Notes: generated by a model not told the origin, from the sequence alone. Shown: positions 4,151 through 60,963, counted from the stretch's first letter. The stretch: DNA of 64,000 nt from a virus (IMGVR_UViG_3300049893_001613:32444-96443); one strand, 5' to 3'. Numbers and translations are program-made.

Positions 4151-6543
4151 TGGCAAACGATATAGTAATTAGAGGTGGTATAAAAGTAGTCAGTAACCTT
4201 GCCTTAGGTACAGGAGATGATTTACTTACAAGAAACTCAACTACAAAAGAAGTTGGGTACGTACCTGCTATCGATGATAGTAACTTCTTAACCACTGCTT
4301 TACCAAGTACATATGTAATTGTAGGTAATGCTTCAAATATAGCTACAGCAGTCCAGATGACCGGTGATGTTACAATCACTGACTTAGGAGTAACTTCTAT
4401 TGCAGCTAATGTTATTACAAACAACAACATTAACTCAGCGGCTGCGATTCAATATTCAAAACTGAATCTCACAGCTGGTATTCTTAACAGTGATATATCA
4501 AACGCTGCAGCTATTACAAGAACAAAGCTTGCAGACGGTAACCCTGATGTGTTGTTAATCAACAACAGTTTAGGTGAGATATCAGAAGCTACTGCTATTA
4601 CACCTAATATGGTGTTAGTATCTGATCCAGACGGTATTCCAGTGGCAAGTGGGGTGTCTTCAACTGTAATAGAATTTCTTGATATTAGTTCGTCACTACA
4701 AACTACTTTGGATGACAAACTTCAATTTGATTCAGCAATAACTCCCGCAGAAGGAGATATTATAGTATACAGTTCAGGAGCATGGACCGCATTAAACGTT
4801 GGAGCAGAAGGTGAAGTTCTTGCTATTACATCCGGTGTACCAGCTTGGACTACAGGTACTTCAAATGGTCTTCCTTCTGGAGGAACTGCAGCCCAGATCT
4901 TAACTAAGATAGATGGAGTAGACTACAATACTCAATGGGTGGATTTAACTCTGTCTCTGATAACAGATGTAACAGCCAGCGCTGCAGAAGTAAATCTTCT
5001 TGATGGGGCTACTTTCACAGCAGCTGAATTAAATTTCATTACCGGAGCTTCATCAAATCTACAAGCTCAGTTAAATAACAAACTAGCAGCTACGTTGCCA
5101 CACAACGCTATGTTTGTTGGTAATACTTCAAATGTGCCAGCAGCATTATCTGGAGGTACAAACGGACAGGTACTACAGATTGTTGGTGGAACTCCTGTGT
5201 GGCAGACAATTACTGGTACTGGTACTGTAACATCTATCGATGTATCCGGTGGTACAACAGGTCTTTCCTTTACTGGTGGCCCTATATCTACTTCTGGTAC
5301 TATAACACTAAGCGGTACATTAGATGCTGATAATGGTGGTACAGGACAGTCATCTTACACAATTGGTGACATCTTATATGCAAGTACAACAACCGCATTA
5401 AGTAAACTTGGAATTGGAACCGCAGGTCAAGTACTACAAATGTCCGGTGGTCTTCCTACATGGCAGACAATCACTACAATTACTGACGGTGACAAAGGAG
5501 ATGTTACAATTTCTGGAACCGGTACCGTGTATACAGTAGATGTTGATATTGCTAAGGCATGGACCGGAGCACAATCATGGAGAGATAACAACTGGAGCTT
5601 ACTGGATAACTCAGATACTTCTAAGATCTTAAACTTCCAGTTATCTTCAATCACAACGGCTACAACCCGTACACTAACAATTCCAGACCAGAATGGTACT
5701 ATTGCAGTACTTACTGACCTGAGACAAAACATTGTCTACACTTCAAAAACAGCTCATGGATTTGTAGTAGAAGACGCAGTAAAAGTAGGAACTACAGCAA
5801 CAGATTGGAGTTTAGTTGATGGTACTGTAGATACTCAGGAAGACTTCCGTGGTATAGTTGTAGAAGTAATAGATGCTGACAACTTTGTAGTAGCCCTACC
5901 AGGATCCCGGGTAACTGGCTTATCCGGATTAACCCCTGGAGCTACTTACTACGCTCAGTCTGATGGTAGTTTAAACACTTCTGTAACACTTGTAAAAGTG
6001 TTATATGCAGATACTGCTACAACCGGTTACATGTTCGCTGGCGGGGGTTCGGGGGCTGGAGGCCACACAATCCAGTGGGACGATTATAGCTTCGCAGCAA
6101 GAACAAATTTAAACTTTGTAGGAAATTATGTAGAAGTTACGGATGATGCTGGTAATGATCAAACAGATGTAGAAATTATAGCCAGAGGTCAAGTAGGTGC
6201 TAACTTTGATGGTCAGGGTTCAGTAGTTCTTGTTAATAGCAGAACTTACTTTAGAACACCAAGAGCTGGTTCAATTTCAGCCTGGTCAATTGTCGCTGAA
6301 GGAACGTCTCCTACATGTACAATAGATATTTGGAAAGTAGCTACGGGTACAACGCTACCTACAGTAGCAAATACAATAATGGGTACTAAACCAGCCCTTG
6401 CAACAGGTAACGCACTTCGTTCAACAACCTTCACAGGTTGGAGCACAACAACATTTGCAGCTAATGATATCTGGTGTATAAACATCGATGCCTGTTCAGC
6501 AGCAACCAAAATAAGCTTTTATTTAGAAGTAACATTTGATTAA
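4150..6543 (+). CDS. tail fibre protein
   Basis: Likely start ATG at 4150 overlaps the upstream TAA. Repeated G(T/A)xGQVL..GG.P.W fibre units; Thr/Gly-rich. Confidence 0.7.
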   Translation: MANDIVIRGGIKVVSNLALGTGDDLLTRNSTTKEVGYVPAIDDSNFLTTALPSTYVIVGNASNIATAVQMTGDVTITDLGVTSIAANVITNNNINSAAAIQYSKLNLTAGILNSDISNAAAITRTKLADGNPDVLLINNSLGEISEATAITPNMVLVSDPDGIPVASGVSSTVIEFLDISSSLQTTLDDKLQFDSAITPAEGDIIVYSSGAWTALNVGAEGEVLAITSGVPAWTTGTSNGLPSGGTAAQILTKIDGVDYNTQWVDLTLSLITDVTASAAEVNLLDGATFTAAELNFITGASSNLQAQLNNKLAATLPHNAMFVGNTSNVPAALSGGTNGQVLQIVGGTPVWQTITGTGTVTSIDVSGGTTGLSFTGGPISTSGTITLSGTLDADNGGTGQSSYTIGDILYASTTTALSKLGIGTAGQVLQMSGGLPTWQTITTITDGDKGDVTISGTGTVYTVDVDIAKAWTGAQSWRDNNWSLLDNSDTSKILNFQLSSITTATTRTLTIPDQNGTIAVLTDLRQNIVYTSKTAHGFVVEDAVKVGTTATDWSLVDGTVDTQEDFRGIVVEVIDADNFVVALPGSRVTGLSGLTPGATYYAQSDGSLNTSVTLVKVLYADTATTGYMFAGGGSGAGGHTIQWDDYSFAARTNLNFVGNYVEVTDDAGNDQTDVEIIARGQVGANFDGQGSVVLVNSRTYFRTPRAGSISAWSIVAEGTSPTCTIDIWKVATGTTLPTVANTIMGTKPALATGNALRSTTFTGWSTTTFAANDIWCINIDACSAATKISFYLEVTFD

Positions 6544-52076: not shown

Positions 52077-52403
52077 TTAGCGGTTGTCTCCTGAGCCTTG
52101 GATTACTCCTCTTTCTCTTCTGGATGTTAGTTTATCAATATTTCGTTTTGCAATTTCATCGAGTGTAAATCCAAGATCATCAGCAAGTGCTGCACAATAC
52201 CAGAGAACGTCACCAATCTCGTCTGCTATGTTATTAACAGCTTCACCGGTAAACTCTCCTCCATTATCACGTAGTACTTTCTTTATCTTTCCCTGAACTT
52301 CTCCTGCTTCATTGCCTAAACCAAGTGCCGGGTATATGATTTTAGAACCATATCCGTACACTTTGTTTTTCATTGCTTCTTTCTGATAGTCGTTAAACTC
52401 CAT
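52077..52403 (-). CDS. mazG: MazG-like NTP pyrophosphohydrolase
   Basis: LGLGNEAGEV..K.KK, DEIGDVLWY, N..KL..R..RG...GSGDNR motifs. Confidence 0.9.
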   Translation of the reverse strand: MEFNDYQKEAMKNKVYGYGSKIIYPALGLGNEAGEVQGKIKKVLRDNGGEFTGEAVNNIADEIGDVLWYCAALADDLGFTLDEIAKRNIDKLTSRRERGVIQGSGDNR

Positions 52404-53115
52404 TTAATTTCCAATTTATTTCGGGTAACCCCTTTCTGTAAAAGTAGTAATTTATTTTCGAAAAATGATTACAACCACTGAATTTATCTTTTCCATGAGC
52501 TCCTGACGCTGGGTGTCCGGATAGGAATACAGGATGATCAAATCCAGGTTCGTCAACTTTTAGACAAGCAGTTTGAAATGCTGTTTCAGCAGCTTTTCCC
52601 CAAGCTGTAAACACAACTGGTGTGCTTTTCTTCAATATAAGCTGTAAAATCTTCCCTGTAAACTGATGCCATCCTATCCAGTCATGAGATCCGGGCTGAC
52701 CAGCCTGCACTGTAAGTGAAGGATTAAGGAGTAATACTCCCTGTTTGGCCCAAGAATCAAGCTTGTTAGTTGGAAAAGCTTGTTTATATTCTTCCTGGTT
52801 TGTTGTTTTAATCACATCTCTGTCAACTTCTCTGAGTATAAACCTAAGAGATGCAGGAGTATCCTCCTGGCTTGAACTGAATGCCAGCCCATCTGCATGG
52901 TATCCAAACGGGTAAGGGTCCTGACCTATCATAACTACTCGCGTATCTTCATAGCTTGTAAGCAGAAGAGCACGGAATATGTTACTTGGAGCCGGTCTCA
53001 CTGCGAACAGCTGGTACTCTCGTCTTAGATCGTCTTTTAGTTTCTGGAAGTACGGTTGTTCCATCTCCTCCTTCAGGAGGTTGTACCAACTGCTTCCCAT
53101 CATTTCTTGATTCAT
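52393..53115 (-). CDS. ung: uracil-DNA glycosylase, family 1
   Basis: GQDPY, GLAFS, WAKQGVLLLN..LTV, HP motifs. Confidence 0.93.
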   Translation of the reverse strand: MNQEMMGSSWYNLLKEEMEQPYFQKLKDDLRREYQLFAVRPAPSNIFRALLLTSYEDTRVVMIGQDPYPFGYHADGLAFSSSQEDTPASLRFILREVDRDVIKTTNQEEYKQAFPTNKLDSWAKQGVLLLNPSLTVQAGQPGSHDWIGWHQFTGKILQLILKKSTPVVFTAWGKAAETAFQTACLKVDEPGFDHPVFLSGHPASGAHGKDKFSGCNHFSKINYYFYRKGLPEINWKLNGV

Positions 53116-53491
53116 ATTCTTTCAGCTTTTTGATTATAGCGTAGAAATCTTCCAGATACATGATTGCGAAGTTATCAACCGTTACAAACCTGTTACCAGC
53201 TTTCTCAGTCTGTTTGTGAAATATCACATTTACAGAACCAGTTCCATCAGGTAGTTCAGCAAGTACTTTACCATACTTCAAATGACCAGTAGTACACTTG
53301 GCCTGAATGTTATAAGGCAGTCTTCCGTTAAGAAGTTCATTCTTGTTGATAATATCAATCTTCTGATCATCTCTCGACTTAGACTCACTCCTCGAGGTAC
53401 ATACATGTGTAAAACCAAGAGACTGAAGATCTTTTACAATCTCCCGTTCCCAGTTATGACCTGCAGTCCTGTTTCGTTTTCCATTGGTCAT
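52982..53491 (-). CDS. PD-(D/E)XK Holliday junction resolvase-like nuclease
   Basis: N...G..WER.I...L, SR.ES...DD.KID, NIQAK motifs. Confidence 0.75.
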   Translation of the reverse strand: MTNGKRNRTAGHNWEREIVKDLQSLGFTHVCTSRSESKSRDDQKIDIINKNELLNGRLPYNIQAKCTTGHLKYGKVLAELPDGTGSVNVIFHKQTEKAGNRFVTVDNFAIMYLEDFYAIIKKLKEYESRNDGKQLVQPPEGGDGTTVLPETKRRSKTRVPAVRSETGSK

Positions 53492-54294
53492 CCAGTACAG
53501 AATTCAGTTTGCAATTCCAGAGCCCTGTCAAGAATCTTTGACACGTTGACTCCTGTTAGTACAGGTTTTTCTCCTATAACATAAGACCTCATTTGAGACA
53601 TTTCCAGATATTCATGTACAAGTCCCTGTTGACTTATAAGAGGGTCAAGAAGATTTCGGGTTATTCTTGCAATCAACATAGAACCATGTTGACCGAACGT
53701 GAACACTTTAGCTCCATTAAGAGGTAACTTAAATGGCACTTTTAAATGTTGAGCTGCCCGTATCATAGGAATATGTTTGGCTTTGACAACTATAAGCAAG
53801 TTCGGGTTGAAACAATTTGCAAAGTTTGTCATATGAACCATGGTACCTGATTCAGGATACTCACTGGTTTTAAGCAATGCGTATGTATCCGGTACAGATC
53901 TGTGAGTGTTCATAATTAGTCCAGGTAATACAAAATAATTGTGTCCCTGATGAGATGCAATATTAACAGCAGAGCCAGTAAAAGCAGCTGTAGCCATTTC
54001 AGTATTATCCCCTCCTCCATTATTGAACATAACTTTACTCAGTGGTACAGGTATGGAATAATGATCAGGGTAACTTAAATTGAACATGGATAGCAGTTCT
54101 GCTTTAAACTCTGCTTTTGTTAAGCACCTGCTTGATCCATGATGCCAGTGTAGCTTGTATCTGGCAGTCCACGGTAGATAATCTTTAAAAGGACTATCAT
54201 ACGCAACAAACAAAGGTACAAACTGCTCAGGGCTCTCTATATGAACTGGAGGTAAGCGGACAAAGCCGCTCCTCTCATCATAGTTCGACAACAT
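53488..54294 (-). CDS. hypothetical protein, last gene of the ubiquitin-like cassette
   Basis: 268 aa; start overlaps the E1 stop by 17 nt; no recognisable motif. Confidence 0.6.
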   Translation of the reverse strand: MLSNYDERSGFVRLPPVHIESPEQFVPLFVAYDSPFKDYLPWTARYKLHWHHGSSRCLTKAEFKAELLSMFNLSYPDHYSIPVPLSKVMFNNGGGDNTEMATAAFTGSAVNIASHQGHNYFVLPGLIMNTHRSVPDTYALLKTSEYPESGTMVHMTNFANCFNPNLLIVVKAKHIPMIRAAQHLKVPFKLPLNGAKVFTFGQHGSMLIARITRNLLDPLISQQGLVHEYLEMSQMRSYVIGEKPVLTGVNVSKILDRALELQTEFCTG

Positions 54295-55039
54295 CTGGTT
54301 CAGGTTTTAATTTGTAAGCAGGCTGTTCAAGCAACATTAACTGTAAATGAAATTCAAAATTACCTGTTTCCCTCGGCATTGCGTCAGGAGTCTGGTCATT
54401 AAACCAGTTGGTAATCTGAGCTGTCATCATAGAACCAATGAAGGCTCCACAGTGTGTTGTTGCTTTCATTGAACAGGGTAAGTCAATCCTCTCATCATCA
54501 GAAAAGTAAGTCTGCTCGTAAGCTTTGAAGTCTTCTGCTGGACTGGTTTTCCACAATGTGAACACCTGCCCGCTTTCTGCAGTTAATCGTCCGTCAACAA
54601 AGAATGACTGTGCTTTTCCATTAGCTTTCCATTCTTCATAAACCATTCGTCTTGCTTTCAGATTATCAAATCCTACACACACAACATCACATGAACGGAC
54701 AATACTTTTCCATTGACTTGTTTCTTCACTTATAGTACTGTTCATAGGAGTAAGAGTATTTGCTTTAAGTCCGCATAACCTGGTTATAACATCACTTAAT
54801 GCATCTACTTTAGCTTTACCTACATCTTCGACACCATAACACTGACCTGCAAGGTTTAATTCTTCGACTGTATCAAAATCAAGAACGTATACATTTGCTC
54901 CGGTACGCACAAGGAACAGACTCAGCCATGAGCCTATTCCTCCTGCACCACCTACAAATATTCTTGATTGAGACATCTTATCGAACCATGTAAGACCCTT
55001 GAAGCGTCCGTAATTTGTAATATTCTGTTTTGAGTTCAT
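54278..55039 (-). CDS. E1-like/ThiF-family ubiquitin-activating (adenylating) enzyme
   Basis: VGGAGGIGSW, DFDTVEELNLAGQ, K.K, GFDN..AR and DGRL motifs; candidate thioester Cys189 in DLPCSMK. Confidence 0.88.
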   Translation of the reverse strand: MNSKQNITNYGRFKGLTWFDKMSQSRIFVGGAGGIGSWLSLFLVRTGANVYVLDFDTVEELNLAGQCYGVEDVGKAKVDALSDVITRLCGLKANTLTPMNSTISEETSQWKSIVRSCDVVCVGFDNLKARRMVYEEWKANGKAQSFFVDGRLTAESGQVFTLWKTSPAEDFKAYEQTYFSDDERIDLPCSMKATTHCGAFIGSMMTAQITNWFNDQTPDAMPRETGNFEFHLQLMLLEQPAYKLKPEPDVVEL

Positions 55040-56057
55040 TGAATGCTGTTTTTAGTTTTGAACCAAGCCAGTTGTTACCGGCCGCATCGAGATACTTAAG
55101 AATAGCATCTATTGCTTCACTTGCTGTACATGCGTTATACATGAATGCATCATCATACCAGTCTTCCACGAAATATGCTTTCACGGCTTTGGTATAATCA
55201 TCAATTTCAGTAACTTCAACAGCTACGTTTACATTGTGTAATGCAACTGCAGGAGCCTGATTAGGTGCCGTTCCAAGTGTTACCAAGTCAGCAAAGTTAT
55301 CAAGCATAGTCATGTAAAGTCTGTTGCTTGGATCACTTTTCTCTTCTTTCTTATCTTTACTGTAATCTGTTTTAGGATAATGAGTAATAGTCTTTACAGG
55401 CTTTTTCAGTGCTTCTGCCTGTTCTATCAACCATTCATCCTGTTCATAAACTACTTCACACTTAGCCAGCCATACTGGTTTATGTGTAGTGGTTTTCTTA
55501 GCTACAGTTCTGTTGTTATCCTTTGTTGCCCAATTCTTGAGTTTATAAACAGTTCTTGTAAGAATAGTTTCTTCAACTTCAATAGCTACAGCAAGTTCAC
55601 AATCCACTTCACATGCGTAATTCACGATGAGTGAAAGGAACATAGGAAGCTTAGGAGCATTCTCATAGATGTCAGCTTTATCAGTTGAACTATGGAATAC
55701 AGGCATTGTATTATGCGAGTGAATCTTACCAATATACCACCCTGGTTCAGGATTCATTGGATCAATCTGTGGAAATGTTTCAAAGCACTTAATCCAGTCT
55801 TCATTTCCTTCGAAGCTGGTAAATGTAGCAGTACCGTAATCCATAGGGAATACAGCTTCCGCTCTTAATTCTAAATAAGCTTTATCGTCTTTGGGATCGA
55901 GGAACTGCTTTACGTCTCCTTCTTCCACTTTATAAATCAGTAGTCCTGACCACTCATCTCCTTTAGGGCATTGGTTATGCAAAAATTGGATTTGAGCCGA
56001 CAGCTGTGGCGTTAGCACTACTGTTACTTTTTTCTTTAAGGGAAATTCTTGTTGCAT
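54978..56057 (-). CDS. JAB/MPN+ metalloprotease (deubiquitinase-like)
   Basis: Likely start MQQEF at 56057. EWSG glutamate plus IHSHNTMPVFHSSTD (HxH-x7-S-x2-D). Confidence 0.85.
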   Translation of the reverse strand: MQQEFPLKKKVTVVLTPQLSAQIQFLHNQCPKGDEWSGLLIYKVEEGDVKQFLDPKDDKAYLELRAEAVFPMDYGTATFTSFEGNEDWIKCFETFPQIDPMNPEPGWYIGKIHSHNTMPVFHSSTDKADIYENAPKLPMFLSLIVNYACEVDCELAVAIEVEETILTRTVYKLKNWATKDNNRTVAKKTTTHKPVWLAKCEVVYEQDEWLIEQAEALKKPVKTITHYPKTDYSKDKKEEKSDPSNRLYMTMLDNFADLVTLGTAPNQAPAVALHNVNVAVEVTEIDDYTKAVKAYFVEDWYDDAFMYNACTASEAIDAILKYLDAAGNNWLGSKLKTAFNELKTEYYKLRTLQGSYMVR

Positions 56058-57240
56058 GATATTTGTATGTGTAAGCTGATTGAAGAAGTTTCTCATTTAC
56101 GAGTCTTGTTATCTCCTTCATAAAATTGCGTGAAAATCTTGTTCTCACTGTTTCTCCCGGAGCTGGGTTTGCTCCTTCAACGATTCTTCTTTCAATATTA
56201 AACAGTCTTATTAGTTCACCATCAAAAGAATCAATAGATGGTAATTGCGCTCCATTGTTGGCAACTCCAGCTACGTAATTCTGGCGGTCTTCGCTCCAGT
56301 TAACCATGTGGTGACCAAGACAATCTTCGTACTTGGGTATTAAACTACATTCAAACTCAAGAAAGTTTTTACTGTCTAAAGAAGGATCGAATACCAGAAC
56401 ACCATTGATGTCTGTAACGGTAGTTGAATTTGTCTGAAGGTACTTAAGTACATCAATGACTACGTCAGGAATGCTTTCTTCGTCTAGTTCAGCTGTGTAA
56501 ATCTCATTATCAGGATCCTGATCTTCATAAACTTCAGGACTGTATCCGTTAAAGTTACGGTTCACCCCCATATCTGCAAGTAAGTGATATGGAGTGCCTT
56601 CTATACTTTCCCATTCAAGGAAAGATTTCATCTGCATGAGAAAGAATTCAAATTCTTCTTCAGTAAATGCTTCTTTATCACAGTCATTAAGGAATTTAGC
56701 AAAGCCTCTATCAGAAGCTCCAAGACAGAAGTAATCAAAATTAGTATAGCTTAAAAGATGTGAATGAGCATATCCTCCTCTTAGTTCTACTGATTGAAAA
56801 CTGTATCTCTTACCTTCAGGCTGACCTACAATAGCTCCTGTAGTTTCATTGATAGGTATGCGGACTACGAGATCATAAATATCGTGTTCAATACCAATTG
56901 TGTTTGTTATTAATAAATGCGGGTAGTAGAGATACAAATAGCCATGCTTGGTTAACCATCCATTAGGGTGGTAAATATCAAGAGTAGGTTTGAATGCATC
57001 AATAGCAACTGGAAGAATCACTTCCTGAATCATTTCATTTGGAACAATTACTTTAGAGGTACTTGAAGCTCTAATATGTTTATTCCTTACTGCAGTAAAC
57101 GGTCCAATATGTTGAACTGGTTCTACTTCATAATAATCAAGATTGATTGGTAATGAACGTCCATCAAGTGCTGTAACTTCTTTGCCATAAAGATTCTTCA
57201 GGTCTTTAGTAAAGACTATTTTAGCGTGTCTTGTTCTCAT
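55975..57240 (-). CDS. prokaryotic E2-like (ubiquitin-conjugating fold) protein
   Basis: YAHSHL-x7-FCLG resembles the E2 HPN..(I/F)CLG active-site region (Cys172); sits between a Ubl and a JAB gene. Confidence 0.6.
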   Translation of the reverse strand: MRTRHAKIVFTKDLKNLYGKEVTALDGRSLPINLDYYEVEPVQHIGPFTAVRNKHIRASSTSKVIVPNEMIQEVILPVAIDAFKPTLDIYHPNGWLTKHGYLYLYYPHLLITNTIGIEHDIYDLVVRIPINETTGAIVGQPEGKRYSFQSVELRGGYAHSHLLSYTNFDYFCLGASDRGFAKFLNDCDKEAFTEEEFEFFLMQMKSFLEWESIEGTPYHLLADMGVNRNFNGYSPEVYEDQDPDNEIYTAELDEESIPDVVIDVLKYLQTNSTTVTDINGVLVFDPSLDSKNFLEFECSLIPKYEDCLGHHMVNWSEDRQNYVAGVANNGAQLPSIDSFDGELIRLFNIERRIVEGANPAPGETVRTRFSRNFMKEITRLVNEKLLQSAYTYKYHATRISLKEKSNSSANATAVGSNPIFA

Positions 57241-57255
57241 AGAATTATGTAAGAA

Positions 57256-57296
57256 TAAAGTGAAAAGTGAGGTCCTGAGACCCCACTCTTACTTTA
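57256..57296 (-). terminator. terminator/attenuator hairpin inside the Ubl cassette
   Basis: AGTGGGGTC-TCAG-GACCTCACT followed by TTTCACTTT on the - strand; the stem can extend to TAAAGT/ACTTTA. Confidence 0.6.
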
Positions 57297-57301
57297 CAAT
57301 C

Positions 57302-57436
57302 CTAAAAAGGAAGGCTGTCGTCTTTGGAAGTATTTGGTAGGAATTCGTAATCGGGTATTGTTTTTATAAACTCATCGATTATTTCTTCTACTTCCGGCAG
57401 GACAACTTCTTCATTTGTTTTATCTTCCGGAGTCAT
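57302..57436 (-). CDS. 44-aa acidic peptide ending in DDSLPF (SSB C-terminal-like; not in ORF track)
   Basis: MTPEDKTNEEVVLPEVEEIIDEFIKTIPDYEFLPNTSKDDSLPF*; ATG overlaps the end of the Ubl gene. Confidence 0.6.
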   Translation of the reverse strand: MTPEDKTNEEVVLPEVEEIIDEFIKTIPDYEFLPNTSKDDSLPF

Positions 57437-57674
57437 TTTTGTCAACTAAGAAATAGATAACAATATCTCCTTCCGGTAATCGTTGTGTGTCGCTGGTGAT
57501 GGCTGTTCCTTTGTTAGGACCTTCACCTTTGAGCCATGCTTTCATCCCCATAGATTTAGCTTCGATGTCAGGAGATTCGTTTTTCAACTCTCCCCAGCTT
57601 TCAGCAGCAGAATAATGCGTGCTGGCACCTGACATGTTAGCGGTGGATGCATAGGTTACTTTACGTGTTGTCAT
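57420..57674 (-). CDS. ubiquitin-like (beta-grasp) protein
   Basis: 84 aa. RKVTY strand, SWGELK helix, LPEGD-IVIYFLV final strand, C-terminus KNDSG-R. First gene of the E2-JAB-E1 run. Confidence 0.65.
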   Translation of the reverse strand: MTTRKVTYASTANMSGASTHYSAAESWGELKNESPDIEAKSMGMKAWLKGEGPNKGTAITSDTQRLPEGDIVIYFLVDKNDSGR

Positions 57675-57676
57675 GA

Positions 57677-57943
57677 TTAGAATTCTTCTTTAAGAATTTT
57701 CTCAGCAAGCACTAAGTCTGCTTGGTTTTGTGCAACTTCTTTAGTCAATTGGAAGATACGATCAATTGAGAATGATGAACTTCCAAGAGCTTGTTCGTAA
57801 GCAGCACTTAATGTTGCAGCTTGTGCTTTAAGAGATGAGATTTTTTGTTCTACCTGAGCTTTGGCGTTTGCTTCAACCAGGTTGTTAGCTTTTGCAGCTT
57901 TTTCGTCTTTACCTTCATTCAGGCGTTCAAGAAATTTTGACAT
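57677..57943 (-). CDS. coiled-coil hypothetical protein
   Basis: 88 aa, helical heptads. Confidence 0.6.
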   Translation of the reverse strand: MSKFLERLNEGKDEKAAKANNLVEANAKAQVEQKISSLKAQAATLSAAYEQALGSSSFSIDRIFQLTKEVAQNQADLVLAEKILKEEF

Positions 57944-57958
57944 ATTTATTATTTGAGT

Positions 57959-58324
57959 TTACGTTTTTTTCCGTTTTTTACGAGTAACGGGCTCGGGTAC
58001 AAAACTATTGTTTCGGTCGTGATATGCATAGAACATAGAGTTACACATTATGTGTCCTATCAGATGTTCCATTGATTCATGATCAGTTTCTGCTTTTCCT
58101 TCATTCATAGCATCTACTAAATCACCACAATGACGAACAAGACTGTCGAGTATTTCACTCTTGACTAATCCTTTTCTCCAGTTATTTGGTGCATATTTTT
58201 CGCTTCCAAACATTAGAACCCGTACCATGGGTTCCAGTGATTTGAAGTCGATTAAAGAATACTTAGGCTTCCCGGTATTAAACCGCTGGGACTTCTGCCT
58301 TTTTCCTTTCTGAGAAAGGGACAT
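57959..58324 (-). CDS. dATP/dGTP diphosphohydrolase-like (DUF5664-type) protein
   Basis: RFNTGKP..SL, FG..KY...NWRKG, SL.RH, D.ES..HL.H...N motifs. Confidence 0.8.
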   Translation of the reverse strand: MSLSQKGKRQKSQRFNTGKPKYSLIDFKSLEPMVRVLMFGSEKYAPNNWRKGLVKSEILDSLVRHCGDLVDAMNEGKAETDHESMEHLIGHIMCNSMFYAYHDRNNSFVPEPVTRKKRKKT

Positions 58325-58619
58325 AATTCCTTACTTTAGAACCTACTTCTTCCATAAGCACAGCTGCCACTTTATCTACAAAACTACGGGAGATTGATTG
58401 CCCGGTAGTGAATAAACTAAATGTGGAATTCTTATGTGCTCTGCCTTTAGCAATCAACACACCAAGTTCTGGTTTGCTTTCCTGATCCGTTGGATTACGT
58501 AATGCAATTCCAAACGTTACAGCGTTGTAACCTTCACCTGGGTGAACTTCTGCAGCGAGAGTAAGTGTCCTTCCCTCACCAATGTCTTTCTGTGGATAGA
58601 CAATTAAGGCATTTTTCAT
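58278..58619 (-). CDS. hypothetical protein
   Basis: 113 aa; G.A..NP.DQ....G..IA.GRA motif common in phage proteins. Confidence 0.55.
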   Translation of the reverse strand: MKNALIVYPQKDIGEGRTLTLAAEVHPGEGYNAVTFGIALRNPTDQESKPELGVLIAKGRAHKNSTFSLFTTGQSISRSFVDKVAAVLMEEVGSKVRNYVPFSERKKAEVPAV

Positions 58620-58626
58620 TGATTTT

Positions 58627-59613
58627 TCATGTTAATAATTGAGTAATAATGGCTTCCGCCTCTTGAAATCCTACAGCATTGCAGAGATCTGTTTTATCTT
58701 TAGCACTATCAAGGAAACGTACTTTCATCCAAGGGTACTTGGCGATGTATTTTTCTGTTTGTAGTTTTCCTGCCGGATCCGGATCTAATGTAAGATAGAT
58801 TTCTTTGAACCGGTCCTTCAATTCAAGAATAAAAGGTTCGGGTATCATTGTAGTTTCACTCTTACCACAAACAGCATTATAACCAAGACGTCTGCAAAAA
58901 ATGACATCCTTACAGGATTTGTCTATTATTAGCTTGTCTCCTGTCGGGGGAAGTTGCATGTAACCAAAGAAGTAATTCTCTGGTAAATCATTCCTGAATT
59001 TATAACGTTTGTCTGCGTAAGGGCTGTACAATTGATAGAACTCGCCAATTCTGTATGCAAAGGTTGGCTCAGGTGCTGTAATAGGAGCCGGCTGCCCCTG
59101 ATATGTCCAGTAATACCTGACTTGAGAGGTGTTATAGAAATCCAGGAGAGGTTTATCAATCGATAACCTGCTCCAGAACTCTATACCTTTTGGGCTTAAC
59201 GCCTGCTCAACGATCCTGATTTTGATTTCCCCAAGAATAGGTTTCTCATACCAGATGATCTTTTCCTTCCTTACAGGATTAGCAGTATCGTATCCTAATG
59301 CAAAATCTGCATTGATGCGTGCTAAAACTTCCTGTGTATTGTTTAATTGTTCAACTTTCTGTATTAACTTAAAGATAGTACCGGATTCTCCTGTCGCATG
59401 GTCTTTCCACATGTATTCAACGTGTGGTGATGCAGATTCAAAAATAGAAAAACTTGGGTAGTTGTCTTTACGGTAATAAGGAGCATGATACGCTTTACCT
59501 GGAATTAAAGGATCCAGATTCGTATAATAACAATACAGGGTATACTCGTCTACTGCCTGCAGGACTGTTTCTTCAGTCAATATAATGGACTTGTATAATT
59601 CGTCAAAGTCCAT
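58627..59613 (-). CDS. DNA primase (crAss-like, TOPRIM)
   Basis: R.DN.PSF, WKDHATGESG, KS.KDV, SET, LDPDPAG and KDKTD motifs. Confidence 0.8.
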   Translation of the reverse strand: MDFDELYKSIILTEETVLQAVDEYTLYCYYTNLDPLIPGKAYHAPYYRKDNYPSFSIFESASPHVEYMWKDHATGESGTIFKLIQKVEQLNNTQEVLARINADFALGYDTANPVRKEKIIWYEKPILGEIKIRIVEQALSPKGIEFWSRLSIDKPLLDFYNTSQVRYYWTYQGQPAPITAPEPTFAYRIGEFYQLYSPYADKRYKFRNDLPENYFFGYMQLPPTGDKLIIDKSCKDVIFCRRLGYNAVCGKSETTMIPEPFILELKDRFKEIYLTLDPDPAGKLQTEKYIAKYPWMKVRFLDSAKDKTDLCNAVGFQEAEAIITQLLT

Positions 59614-59622
59614 AATAGACTA

Positions 59623-60303
59623 TTAGGTTGTTTTTGCAAATAGAGCAGCCGCGGTTGTAGCATCTTCCTTAGATACTACAGACTCACCGGTTACAGGATC
59701 AGGGATGTTAAGTCCATTATCCAGTTCGTATTTGCTGTATTTTAACTTAGATGTTGGCACAGTCATAGGTTCGATGAACGGATAACTGTCTAAGAAACGT
59801 GTACGAAGCTTAGGGAAGTGCTTAGCTTTCGACTGACGAATGAAGAGCATTCTCATTTTCTTACCTGTTTCTCCAACATAAGGAGTCATTTGTTTGATGA
59901 ACTGTTCAACAATATTAGCATAGATCTTGTCAATGACAGCCTGTGTCTTAATACGTGTTTCAAAGTTCTCGTTAGTCAGTCCGGTACCGGCAAGAATATC
60001 CCATTTGATGTTGCTTGTAGTGGTGTATTGTTGTAGAATACGATCCAGAGGATCTTTCACTTCGGCAATCTTCTTCAATAGGTTTTCTTTGGTGTCTGTC
60101 TGACCCTGATTATCTTCCAACCGAGGAGGGAAGATTAGGAAATCCTGTTCTTTTTGGTCTAATGTAATGGAACCACTGGCATTGAGTGCGGTCATTGGGT
60201 CTACATCACCCACTTGTTTTACACCGATTACCAGGCTTCCTTTGTCGTTCTTAGTTGTCTTAGTGATAACAATGTTATCATGGATTCCTACTGGTAGGCT
60301 CAT
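59623..60303 (-). CDS. crAss-like replication protein (possible ssDNA-binding protein)
   Basis: VGIHDNI start and FIEPM motif; positioned between the AAA ATPase and the primase. Confidence 0.45.
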   Translation of the reverse strand: MSLPVGIHDNIVITKTTKNDKGSLVIGVKQVGDVDPMTALNASGSITLDQKEQDFLIFPPRLEDNQGQTDTKENLLKKIAEVKDPLDRILQQYTTTSNIKWDILAGTGLTNENFETRIKTQAVIDKIYANIVEQFIKQMTPYVGETGKKMRMLFIRQSKAKHFPKLRTRFLDSYPFIEPMTVPTSKLKYSKYELDNGLNIPDPVTGESVVSKEDATTAAALFAKTT

Positions 60304-60318
60304 AGATTATAAAAATAG

Positions 60319-60963
60319 TTAATTAGTTACTGTGTCATTGGCTACAGTAGACGTTATCCCAGCAGTAGCTGGTGTCTGTGTAGCAGTTGCTTTTAGATTC
60401 TCTGGAGTATTAACCGGATAGAATGTGATGTTCTCACGTCTTTCGTAGGTCTTCTCTCCCTTGTTTGCTCCTCGTTCTACTACTTTAGGAACAGTAGCGA
60501 TACCATCCTTCATTGTAATAGGATATTCTGTTACTACTTGCAGGTCACAATACTTCTGGTCATCTGTAAGATAACCCATAGAGCGCACCAGCTCGAGTAA
60601 CATAGGTGAAGTGCTTCCCTGTACATACACACTGGATTTAGGAGTTCCATCTTCATTATACCGGCATGTACCGAACAGATCAATTTTAGCTTCAGTCTTG
60701 GGAACGAATCCAAATATAATCATTCTTGGAAATTGGGCAGTTGGTATCCACTCGCTTGAGTCGATTACGTCAATGCCATTTGTCTGTGCTTGTTCGTCTT
60801 TATTACCATATTCCAGATTGAACTTGTTTACAAGGTCTGCACTGGGATAGACCTCCCCGTTAGGGAAGATACGAAGGGTTAAACCTTCTGGTGTTTTTGT
60901 CTTTGGAGTTCTCTGGCGCCCTGTATCAACCAGGGTTAAGCCATTTAAAAATGAATAATCCAT
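60319..60963 (-). CDS. hypothetical protein
   Basis: 214-aa ORF coupled to the AAA ATPase stop. Confidence 0.6.
   Translation of the reverse strand: MDYSFLNGLTLVDTGRQRTPKTKTPEGLTLRIFPNGEVYPSADLVNKFNLEYGNKDEQAQTNGIDVIDSSEWIPTAQFPRMIIFGFVPKTEAKIDLFGTCRYNEDGTPKSSVYVQGSTSPMLLELVRSMGYLTDDQKYCDLQVVTEYPITMKDGIATVPKVVERGANKGEKTYERRENITFYPVNTPENLKATATQTPATAGITSTVANDTVTN

Follow-up and report, generated by a model that had tools for sequence, protein, structure and literature searches.

The 64,000-nucleotide stretch of viral DNA analyzed here (IMGVR_UViG_3300049893_001613:32444-96443; hereinafter the window) comprises the last 64 kb of the complete 96,443-bp record of a crAss-like phage, and carries within its replication module a cassette of genes for a ubiquitin-like protein (Ubl), a peptidase, an activating enzyme, and a probable transfer enzyme. 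We consider it fairly probable that through this cassette the phage encodes its own Ubl conjugation system of the E1-to-E2 type, which shares its four parts (Ubl, E2-like protein, JAB peptidase, and E1) with the bacterial Bil operons and is built from families too diverged for detection by sequence. The in silico support comprises the folds of the Ubl and of the core of the E2-like protein, the motifs of the JAB and E1 proteins, invariant cysteines in both presumptive transfer enzymes, the precursor architecture of the Ubl, and strict synteny; we infer the chemistry at each step, as well as the targets and the biological role discussed below. A preliminary description of the window, made from the sequence alone, had placed five open reading frames (ORFs) on the - strand between 53488 and 57674 and called them a complete cassette. 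All five are present where it put them (Table 1), and completeness stands for the four core parts.

Gene order and distribution of the cassette

A degenerate-pattern scan of IMG/VR with the alignment of the E2-like family recovered 80 loci, which together with Bacteroides phage crAss001, Flavobacterium phage FpV4, and the window make up 83 sources with 75 distinct E2-like sequences. In 71 of the 83 the genes lie on one strand in the order Ubl, E2-like, JAB, E1 (in crAss001, gp79, gp78, gp77, and gp76, respectively), and in each of the other 12 a contig end falls within 213 nt of the expected start of the missing gene; co-occurrence in related phages, which the preliminary description had taken to follow from its proposal, is therefore without exception. 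Profile iteration over these loci further placed the Ubl gene always directly upstream of the E2-like gene. The E2-like family is large, reaching 1334 cluster representatives at E<=0.001 in a HMMER search of 1.84 billion representatives. It was not found in 400 other sampled genomes of the phylum to which one carrier metagenome-assembled genome (MAG) belongs, the single positive among the 401 being that MAG's own contig, and a DNA pattern scan of 185,579 species genomes found the cassette on only two MAG contigs among the 14 stretches matched. By these sequence surveys, the E2-like family looks phage-specific within the genomes searched.

More direct similarity searches retrieved little: blastn against phage records gave no match, no related loci were found with single cassette proteins as queries, tblastn returned one weak hit for the E2-like protein and none for the Ubl or the fifth protein, and a BFVD structure search matched only uncharacterised crAss-like proteins. 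The GenBank labels on the cassette genes of relatives are limited to 'thiamine biosynthesis protein', 'metalloprotease', and 'hypothetical'.

A beta-grasp precursor with an invariant glycine

The Ubl precursor was modeled with AlphaFold2 (AF2) using an alignment of the homologues recovered by profile iteration over the related loci. The model (pLDDT 84.7) displays the b-b-a-b-b-b topology of the beta-grasp fold (b, strand; a, helix), and its structural matches are ubiquitin-fold domains only (Foldseek rows with E down to 2e-4, and all 50 of the VIA rows listed, with Z up to 8.9), although searches of sequence libraries and a profile search of the PDB gave nothing significant. The neighbors include DIX, UBX, FAT10, SUMO, ISG15, multi-ubiquitin proteins, MoaD (chains at Z 7.4 and 6.3), and BubA (9eav_C, Z 6.2). 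The confident model and the exclusivity of these matches uphold the beta-grasp fold that had been suspected from the sequence pattern.

The domain continues into a flexible C-terminal tail, K81-N-D-S-G83-R84 (KNDSG-R). In 64 distinct Ubl sequences the domain closes with a conserved K-x-K-S-G; the Gly is the sole invariant column, as had been anticipated for G83, and K81 is at least 90% conserved. This Gly is never terminal, being followed by 1 to about 285 residues in every protein examined: 14 of the proteins stop 1-6 residues past it (Arg84 in the window) and the others extend for 20 to about 270 residues. Since those 14 end so soon after the Gly, the conserved boundary is the Gly itself. 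As far as sequence comparison goes, such an architecture is that of ubiquitin-type precursors and marks a protein in need of trimming, with G83 as the presumed mature C-terminus, and an invariant but never terminal Gly next to a gene for a JAMM peptidase supports the proposed trimming by the JAB protein to expose it.

Several observations concern the Ubl genes and the gap behind them. The extension past the Gly forms a conserved family of its own, which crAss001 and FpV4 share with others of at least 29 loci (among our numbered loci, L022, L026, L058, L001, L002, and others); it starts directly after the Gly with a motif like LSYKELR...GKNYT.KST.ELR.LL and has a charged helix at its end. The motif recalls, as our impression, SAP/HeH-type helix pairs. 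One locus (L078) possesses two tandem Ubl-precursor genes (4622-5068 and 5140-5613) upstream of the E2-like gene. Phages with short Ubl genes often have ~200 nt between this gene and that for the E2-like protein, and in the window this gap holds a possible acidic ORF that begins in the +1 frame within the last Ubl codons, ends in DDSLPF, and has no family match. Small ORFs at the same place in two near relatives end in FEDPF (L006:5520-5761) and DDEVPF (L012:5425-5695), and these acidic ends resemble the C-terminal tip of the single-stranded DNA-binding protein SSB. Between the Ubl gene or small ORF and the enzyme genes lies a hairpin of 12 pairs with a loop of 4 and a T-rich tail, the longest stem among the terminator-like sites in a consensus scan of 53000-60500; judging by its position, it may lead to an excess of Ubl transcript over that of the enzyme genes.

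The JAB peptidase

The JAB protein carries the motif E48-W-S-G ... H126-S-H128-x7-S136-x2-D139, intact as first described and conserved in relatives: 52 JAB proteins of ~20% identity all share H126, H128, S136, and D139, and E48 reaches a conservation of at least 90%. The catalytic domain lies within the first ~170 residues and is followed by a long helical C-terminal region. The protein matches PHROG 16107/21448 and is the orthologue of crAss001 gp77, annotated as 'metalloprotease'; a profile search of the PDB with the JAB alignment gave nothing significant. The ORF as given is the longest possible reading and overlaps the preceding gene by 122 nt, so that the protein may really start at a later codon.

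Several relatives have their JAB or E1 gene split by inserts of ~1 kb that encode a LAGLIDADG homing endonuclease (ORFs at L031:8234-9031, L077:7533-8414, L005:1401-2150, and L078:7339-7980), and in the split JAB genes the insert site is near the HxH site. These inserts are probably introns or mobile insertions at conserved sites, a pattern usual for conserved, needed genes.

An E1-like enzyme of its own kind

The E1-like protein is the one component readily recognized by sequence (Pfam ThiF: E 7.6e-24, 84.6 bits against a cut-off of 28.1). All the features previously ascribed to it are present, namely a GxGGxG loop (G31-A-G-G-I-G36), the D.D.VE..NL motif (D54-F-D56-T-V-E-E-L-N62-L), the candidate thioester Cys (C189), and no Zn-binding CxxC pairs; nor was a rhodanese or UFD domain seen. 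Among 47 E1 proteins the ATP-loop residues G31 and G33 are invariant, as are S37, D56, N62, K77, D125, R130, R151, and C189. C189 presumably occupies the position of C184 in ThiF and C187 in MoeB. A profile of the 47 orthologues matches UBA5, MccB, NAE1/UBA3, UBA6, ThiF, MoeB, and Cap2 in the PDB. The NCBIfam models for ThiF, MoeB, and PRTRC_ThiF all score under their cut-offs (ThiF equivalog: 77.4 against 159 bits), and because these scores are so far under the thresholds, the protein appears from its sequence to be an E1-superfamily enzyme of its own kind. MccB as a top PDB match raised microcin-type peptide adenylation, which we dropped as the substrate gene codes for a conserved beta-grasp protein with a Gly tail.

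A distant ThiF-like gene occurs in Xanthomonas phage PhiXhv-15, a 229-kb jumbo phage (L108; PV764602.1 80006-90500), with genes just upstream of it for an 892-residue unknown protein and a 141-residue protein ending in ...KASGG. Of the crAss cassette profiles, only that of E1 matched this region; it may be an independent phage Ubl/E1 set.

A probable E2-like protein

The 421-residue protein between the Ubl and JAB proteins displays the motif H159-S-H161, nine residues, F171-C172-L-G174, and a second motif W210-E-S-x-E-G-x-P217. The preliminary description had read the former as HSH-x8-FCLG with Cys172 as the candidate catalytic residue; the motif and the Cys are there, with a spacer of nine rather than eight residues. 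In 86 relatives spanning 17-69% identity H159, H161, F171, C172, G174, E211, S212, G215, and P217 are invariant, and the expectation that Cys172 would be conserved thus holds throughout.

The AF2 model (pLDDT 89, pTM 0.80) comprises an SH3-like barrel (residues ~1-75), a UBC-like core (~78-225), and a C-terminal alpha/beta region. The core runs through a helix (79-90), four strands (95-149), the HxH...Cys loop, and two helices (179-186 and 194-209), which is the order of the UBC fold, and the spacing H159-S-H161-x10-C172 compares with that of E2 enzymes, in which the catalytic Cys lies about 8-11 residues past the HPN-like motif. When residues 78-225(-355) were compared exhaustively with VIA-align, E2/UBC/RWD chains ranked first (Z 5.0-5.6, a range that the tool grades as 'middling'; rmsd 3.4-4.8 over 103-129 residues). 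The matches include UBE2J2, UbcH7, Ubc8, UBE2E1, Ubc13, and BubB (9eav_D: Z 5.2, rmsd 3.4, 103 residues), and ~36 of the best 50 rows are E2/UEV/RWD chains, the others matching the SH3-like N-domain. The predicted UBC fold is thus backed in that the best structural matches of residues 78-225 are of the E2/UBC fold, at moderate Z and with no sequence or profile link to known E2 enzymes; for these reasons we term the protein E2-like, and regard that assignment, made from the model, as probable. The ESM Atlas offered DUF932/DUF3871 for the core (0.89, below the tool's trust level), which found no hmmscan support and was rejected. A prediction of the complex of E1 with the 421-residue protein, run without controls, gave no answer (score 0.01) and carries no weight either way on binding.

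The fifth gene and the genomic setting

The preliminary description had called the fifth protein a 268-residue orphan. This does not hold: its family, though very divergent, can be followed through at least 53 related loci, in which the gene comes immediately after that for E1. The family was delineated as a single-linkage cluster of 46 downstream ORFs, the profile of which reaches 53 loci, including FpV4 gp49. It is fast-evolving, with a mean column identity of 11% and no invariant residue beyond the start Met, and has no match in Pfam (46 members tested), a PDB profile search, PHROG, or PADLOC. The OB_NTP_bind assignment offered by the ESM Atlas (0.94, 160 shared features) was without hmmscan support and was set aside. 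Many orthologues end in an acidic tail with a terminal aromatic residue (DDIPF, EDLPF, EESGF, VEDISW, or FQVLW; e.g., L056:9372-10460, L001:6669-7757, and L008:8997-10166), whereas the protein in the window ends in EFCTG without such a tail. We would guess at a binding or adaptor protein, or a target of conjugation.

The genes of the window have orthologues, with their order kept, in crAss001 (Crassvirales, Steigviridae) and FpV4. The flanks are as first described, with a primase on one side and a resolvase and uracil-DNA glycosylase (UDG) on the other. Upstream of the cassette are three small genes and a 328-residue orthologue of crAss001 gp80, annotated as DNA primase (phmmer 1.6e-22); downstream are a resolvase-like gene, UDG, MazG, and a 5'-3' exonuclease. 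Nucleotide-pool enzymes lie on both sides: at 57959-58324 (-) a 121-residue protein matching the N-terminal domain of a dATP/dGTP diphosphohydrolase (PF18909, 1.3e-18), and at 52077-52403 (-) a 108-residue MazG-like protein.

Table 1. Cassette genes and associated features, in window coordinates
Feature	Position	Strand	Basis
Ubl precursor, 84 aa	57420..57674	-	ORF
Possible acidic ORF, 44 aa	57302..57436	-	ORF; cassette membership uncertain
Terminator-like hairpin	57263..57290	-	Consensus scan; pattern match
E2-like protein (probable), 421 aa	55975..57240	-	ORF, AF2 model, conservation
JAB/JAMM (MPN+) metallopeptidase, up to 372 aa	54978..56096	-	Motif, PHROG, orthology
E1-like adenylating enzyme (ThiF/MoeB superfamily), 253 aa	54278..55039	-	Pfam ThiF, PDB profile matches
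Fifth gene, 268 aa	53488..54294	-	Family of ORFs downstream of the E1 gene

Relationship to known ubiquitin-like systems

The closest parallel is with the Bil (bacterial ISG15-like) operons (BilA-BilB-BilC-BilD, types I and II), which likewise encode Ubl, E2, JAB, and E1 parts (PMC11601603; Chambers et al., bioRxiv 10.1101/2023.09.26.559546; Hor et al., bioRxiv 10.1101/2023.09.04.556158). The two share four separate genes, a Cys in both E1 and E2, and a Ubl with a C-terminal Gly. However, Bil is a host-encoded anti-phage defence and the present cassette resides in a crAss-like phage of the virulent type; its E2-like protein is enlarged by SH3-like and C-terminal domains; the four genes are followed by a conserved fifth one; its Ubl has one beta-grasp domain, usually with a long C-terminal extension; and no sequence similarity to known families was detected for its Ubl, E2-like, and JAB proteins. 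In PADLOC, whose release may not hold Bil models, the Ubl, E2-like, JAB, and fifth proteins all went unmatched, and for E1 it returned, among the matches listed (25 of 26 families), only the 'E1-E2' models of CBASS. Type II CBASS, with the E2-E1 fusion Cap2 and the JAB protein Cap3, shares the enzyme classes, and Cap2 chains in the PDB also match the phage E1; unlike CBASS, the cassette has neither a CD-NTase nor an E2-E1 fusion, its substrate is a dedicated beta-grasp Ubl, and the match of its E2-like core to Cap2-type E2 domains is not significant by hhalign.

The Bub system (bacterial ubiquitination-like, formerly 6E/DUF6527) works through oxyester intermediates with an E1 lacking a catalytic Cys, has a Ubl precursor cut by a JAB peptidase, as we predict for the phage protein, and fuses Ubl to E2 (BubAB) and JAB to E1 (BubCD), adding the DUF6527 protease BubE (Ye et al., 2024; PMC11601596). 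BubB and BubA are among the structural neighbors of the phage E2-like core and Ubl (Z 5.2 and 6.2, respectively); in contrast to what is described there, the phage genes are separate and a Cys is invariant in both of its enzymes. DUF6527 was not found in the cassette, Pfam having matched only ThiF and weak sub-threshold hits such as Prok-JAB. The PRTRC systems (ParB-related, ThiF-related cassette; TIGR03734-03742) are similar in that mobile elements carry a ThiF-like E1, a JAB protein, an E2-like protein, and a small Ubl, but PRTRC_ThiF (TIGR03736) scores only 43 bits against the phage E1 (cut-off 144.75), and the NCBIfam models of PRTRC proteins A-F and ParB have no match among the cassette proteins.

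Two further groups have partial resemblance. In the tail modules of phages lambda and T1, a Ubl with a conserved C-terminal Gly and an extension (TAPI) adjoins a JAB-NlpC/P60 protein (TAPK) (Iyer et al., 2006; PMC1779556); these lack both E1 and E2, which the present cassette has, in a replication module. The sulfur-carrier pairs ThiF-ThiS and MoeB-MoaD, and the JAB-containing variants CysO/Mec and QbsCDE, combine an E1 of ~250 residues bearing a Cys in the crossover loop with a small beta-grasp substrate, at times trimmed by JAB; the phage cassette differs in a Ser-Gly rather than Gly-Gly tail, in the absence of sulfur-donor genes from the phage genome, and in the added UBC-like Cys protein. 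We found no paper on a crAss ThiF/JAB/ubiquitin cassette or on a phage-encoded E1/E2 Ubl system; a term search of the Bil and Bub papers and of Iyer et al. (2006) gave no mention of phage-encoded E1/E2 systems, the phage Ubls of the last being TAPI/TAPK only. What is new here is a set of Bil-like parts that is viral and built from unrecognisably diverged families.

Proposed pathway and alternative explanations

We propose that the cassette is expressed with the replication genes. The beta-grasp protein would be made as a precursor, which the JAMM peptidase would cut after Gly83, removing Arg84 alone in the window phage and tens to a few hundred residues in most relatives. The E1 would then bind ATP, adenylate the carboxylate of Gly83, and carry the Ubl as a thioester on the presumed crossover-loop Cys189, from which it would pass to Cys172 in the UBC-like core of the 421-residue protein. 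The SH3-like N-terminal and the C-terminal domains of this protein would probably serve in recognition of partners or substrates, a role that we assign to them because no separate E3 was seen. The final acceptors of the Ubl would be lysines in proteins of the phage or the host, from which the JAMM peptidase may also remove it again; the fifth protein is possibly an adaptor or target. A role in modification of the replisome or in counter-defence is speculation, and the constancy of its place in the replication module favors a core function of the cassette. At the broadest, we see an even balance for and against the view that a large crAss-like group, including the cultured crAss001, DAC15, and FpV4, runs its own thioester E1-E2 Ubl cascade during replication and tags phage or host proteins with it, the released Ubl extension being a second product.

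Several results weigh against a conjugation cascade. With regard to the E2-like protein, apart from the middling Z-scores, Foldseek with the whole model found no match in the PDB beyond weak SH3-type rows for the N-domain; neither Pfam searches with 86 members of the family nor a profile search of the PDB with its alignment found anything significant; and hhalign of the core with seven Cap2-type (Prok-E2_B) E2 domains from genomes gave a probability of 0.2%, the best path at that value pairing HxH with PH and FCLG with LC. C172 was, moreover, matched to the catalytic Cys of E2 enzymes by motif. In the other components, the minimal E1 has no recognisable E2-binding domain, Pfam Prok-JAB matches residues 104-152 of the JAB protein at E 0.0012 (19.2 bits, under the 25-bit cut-off), and the Ubl tail has a single Gly rather than the usual Gly-Gly. 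The cassette has no recognised E3, target, or conjugate.

An unlikely alternative is that Ubl activation proceeds without an E2 step. The 421-residue protein would then be the substrate, an adaptor, or an unrelated enzyme whose His/His/Cys residues bind metal or form a catalytic site, and the Ubl would either work without covalent attachment or be ligated by the E1 itself; or else the extension released by JAB would be the real product, as in lambda TAPI/TAPK. The assignment of E2 from moderate structural scores only, the conservation of the extension in its own right, and the precedent of Ubl and JAB pairs without E1 or E2 in phage tail assembly (PMC1779556) all fit such a scenario. Against it, C172, H159, and H161 are invariant in a family of more than 1300 clusters, the order of secondary structures and the motif spacing are those of UBC enzymes, the gene always lies between those for Ubl and JAB, which is also where the naming of the Bil parts puts E2, and all the enzymes are kept in phages whose Ubl has almost no extension.

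The main rival is a sulfur-carrier pathway, which we think rather improbable. In it, the Ubl would behave like ThiS, MoaD, CysO, or QbsE, being trimmed by JAB, adenylated, and converted to a thiocarboxylate that donates sulfur to a nucleotide, a DNA or tRNA base, or a cofactor made in replication, with the Cys172 protein as a persulfide relay or sulfurtransferase. Among NCBIfam names, ThiF and MoeB indeed fit the E1 best, the structural neighbors of the Ubl include MoaD chains, the cassette sits amid genes of nucleotide and DNA metabolism (UDG, MazG, and the dNTP diphosphohydrolase-like protein), and known clusters for sulfur transfer, too, combine a JAB, an E1, and a C-terminally extended beta-grasp protein (Iyer et al., 2006; PMC1779556). 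Yet the ThiF/MoeB equivalog scores are far under their cut-offs (77 against 159 bits), neither a rhodanese (PF00581) nor a class-V aminotransferase/desulfurase (PF00266) is encoded in the complete genome (a host donor being possible), the Ubl tail is Ser-Gly rather than Gly-Gly, and the fold of the partner is UBC-like rather than sulfurtransferase-like. It appears more improbable still that the same machinery is aimed mainly at host Ubl immunity (Bil, Bub, or type II CBASS) rather than at phage replication, be it that the JAB strips host conjugates or that the phage Ubl, E1, and E2 compete with or mis-tag defence proteins. According to the literature, enzymes of these classes serve host Bil in tagging the tail proteins of phages and, as Cap2/Cap3, regulate CBASS, and the fifth gene and the Ubl extension evolve fast, like arms-race genes; but all the related phages examined have the cassette, fixed at one site of the replication module and invaded by homing endonucleases, a pattern more usual for core genes than for accessory anti-defence genes, and apart from the generic E1 domain nothing in the cassette resembled models specific to Bil or CBASS.

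Implications

What has been characterised of bacterial Ubl conjugation to date (Bil, Bub, and CBASS Cap2/Cap3) is host immunity. The present cassette puts the four-part machinery into the conserved replication module of a phage group that is among the most abundant in the human gut and in aquatic Bacteroidota, and it may enlarge the evolutionary record of the ubiquitin system by new E2 and Ubl families of high divergence. Cultured pairs make the question testable, namely crAss001 with B. intestinalis, DAC15 with B. thetaiotaomicron, and FpV4 with F. psychrophilum. If the conjugation reading is true, protein 'ubiquitination' in bacteria would extend beyond host defence and also be a viral weapon or a tool of replication.

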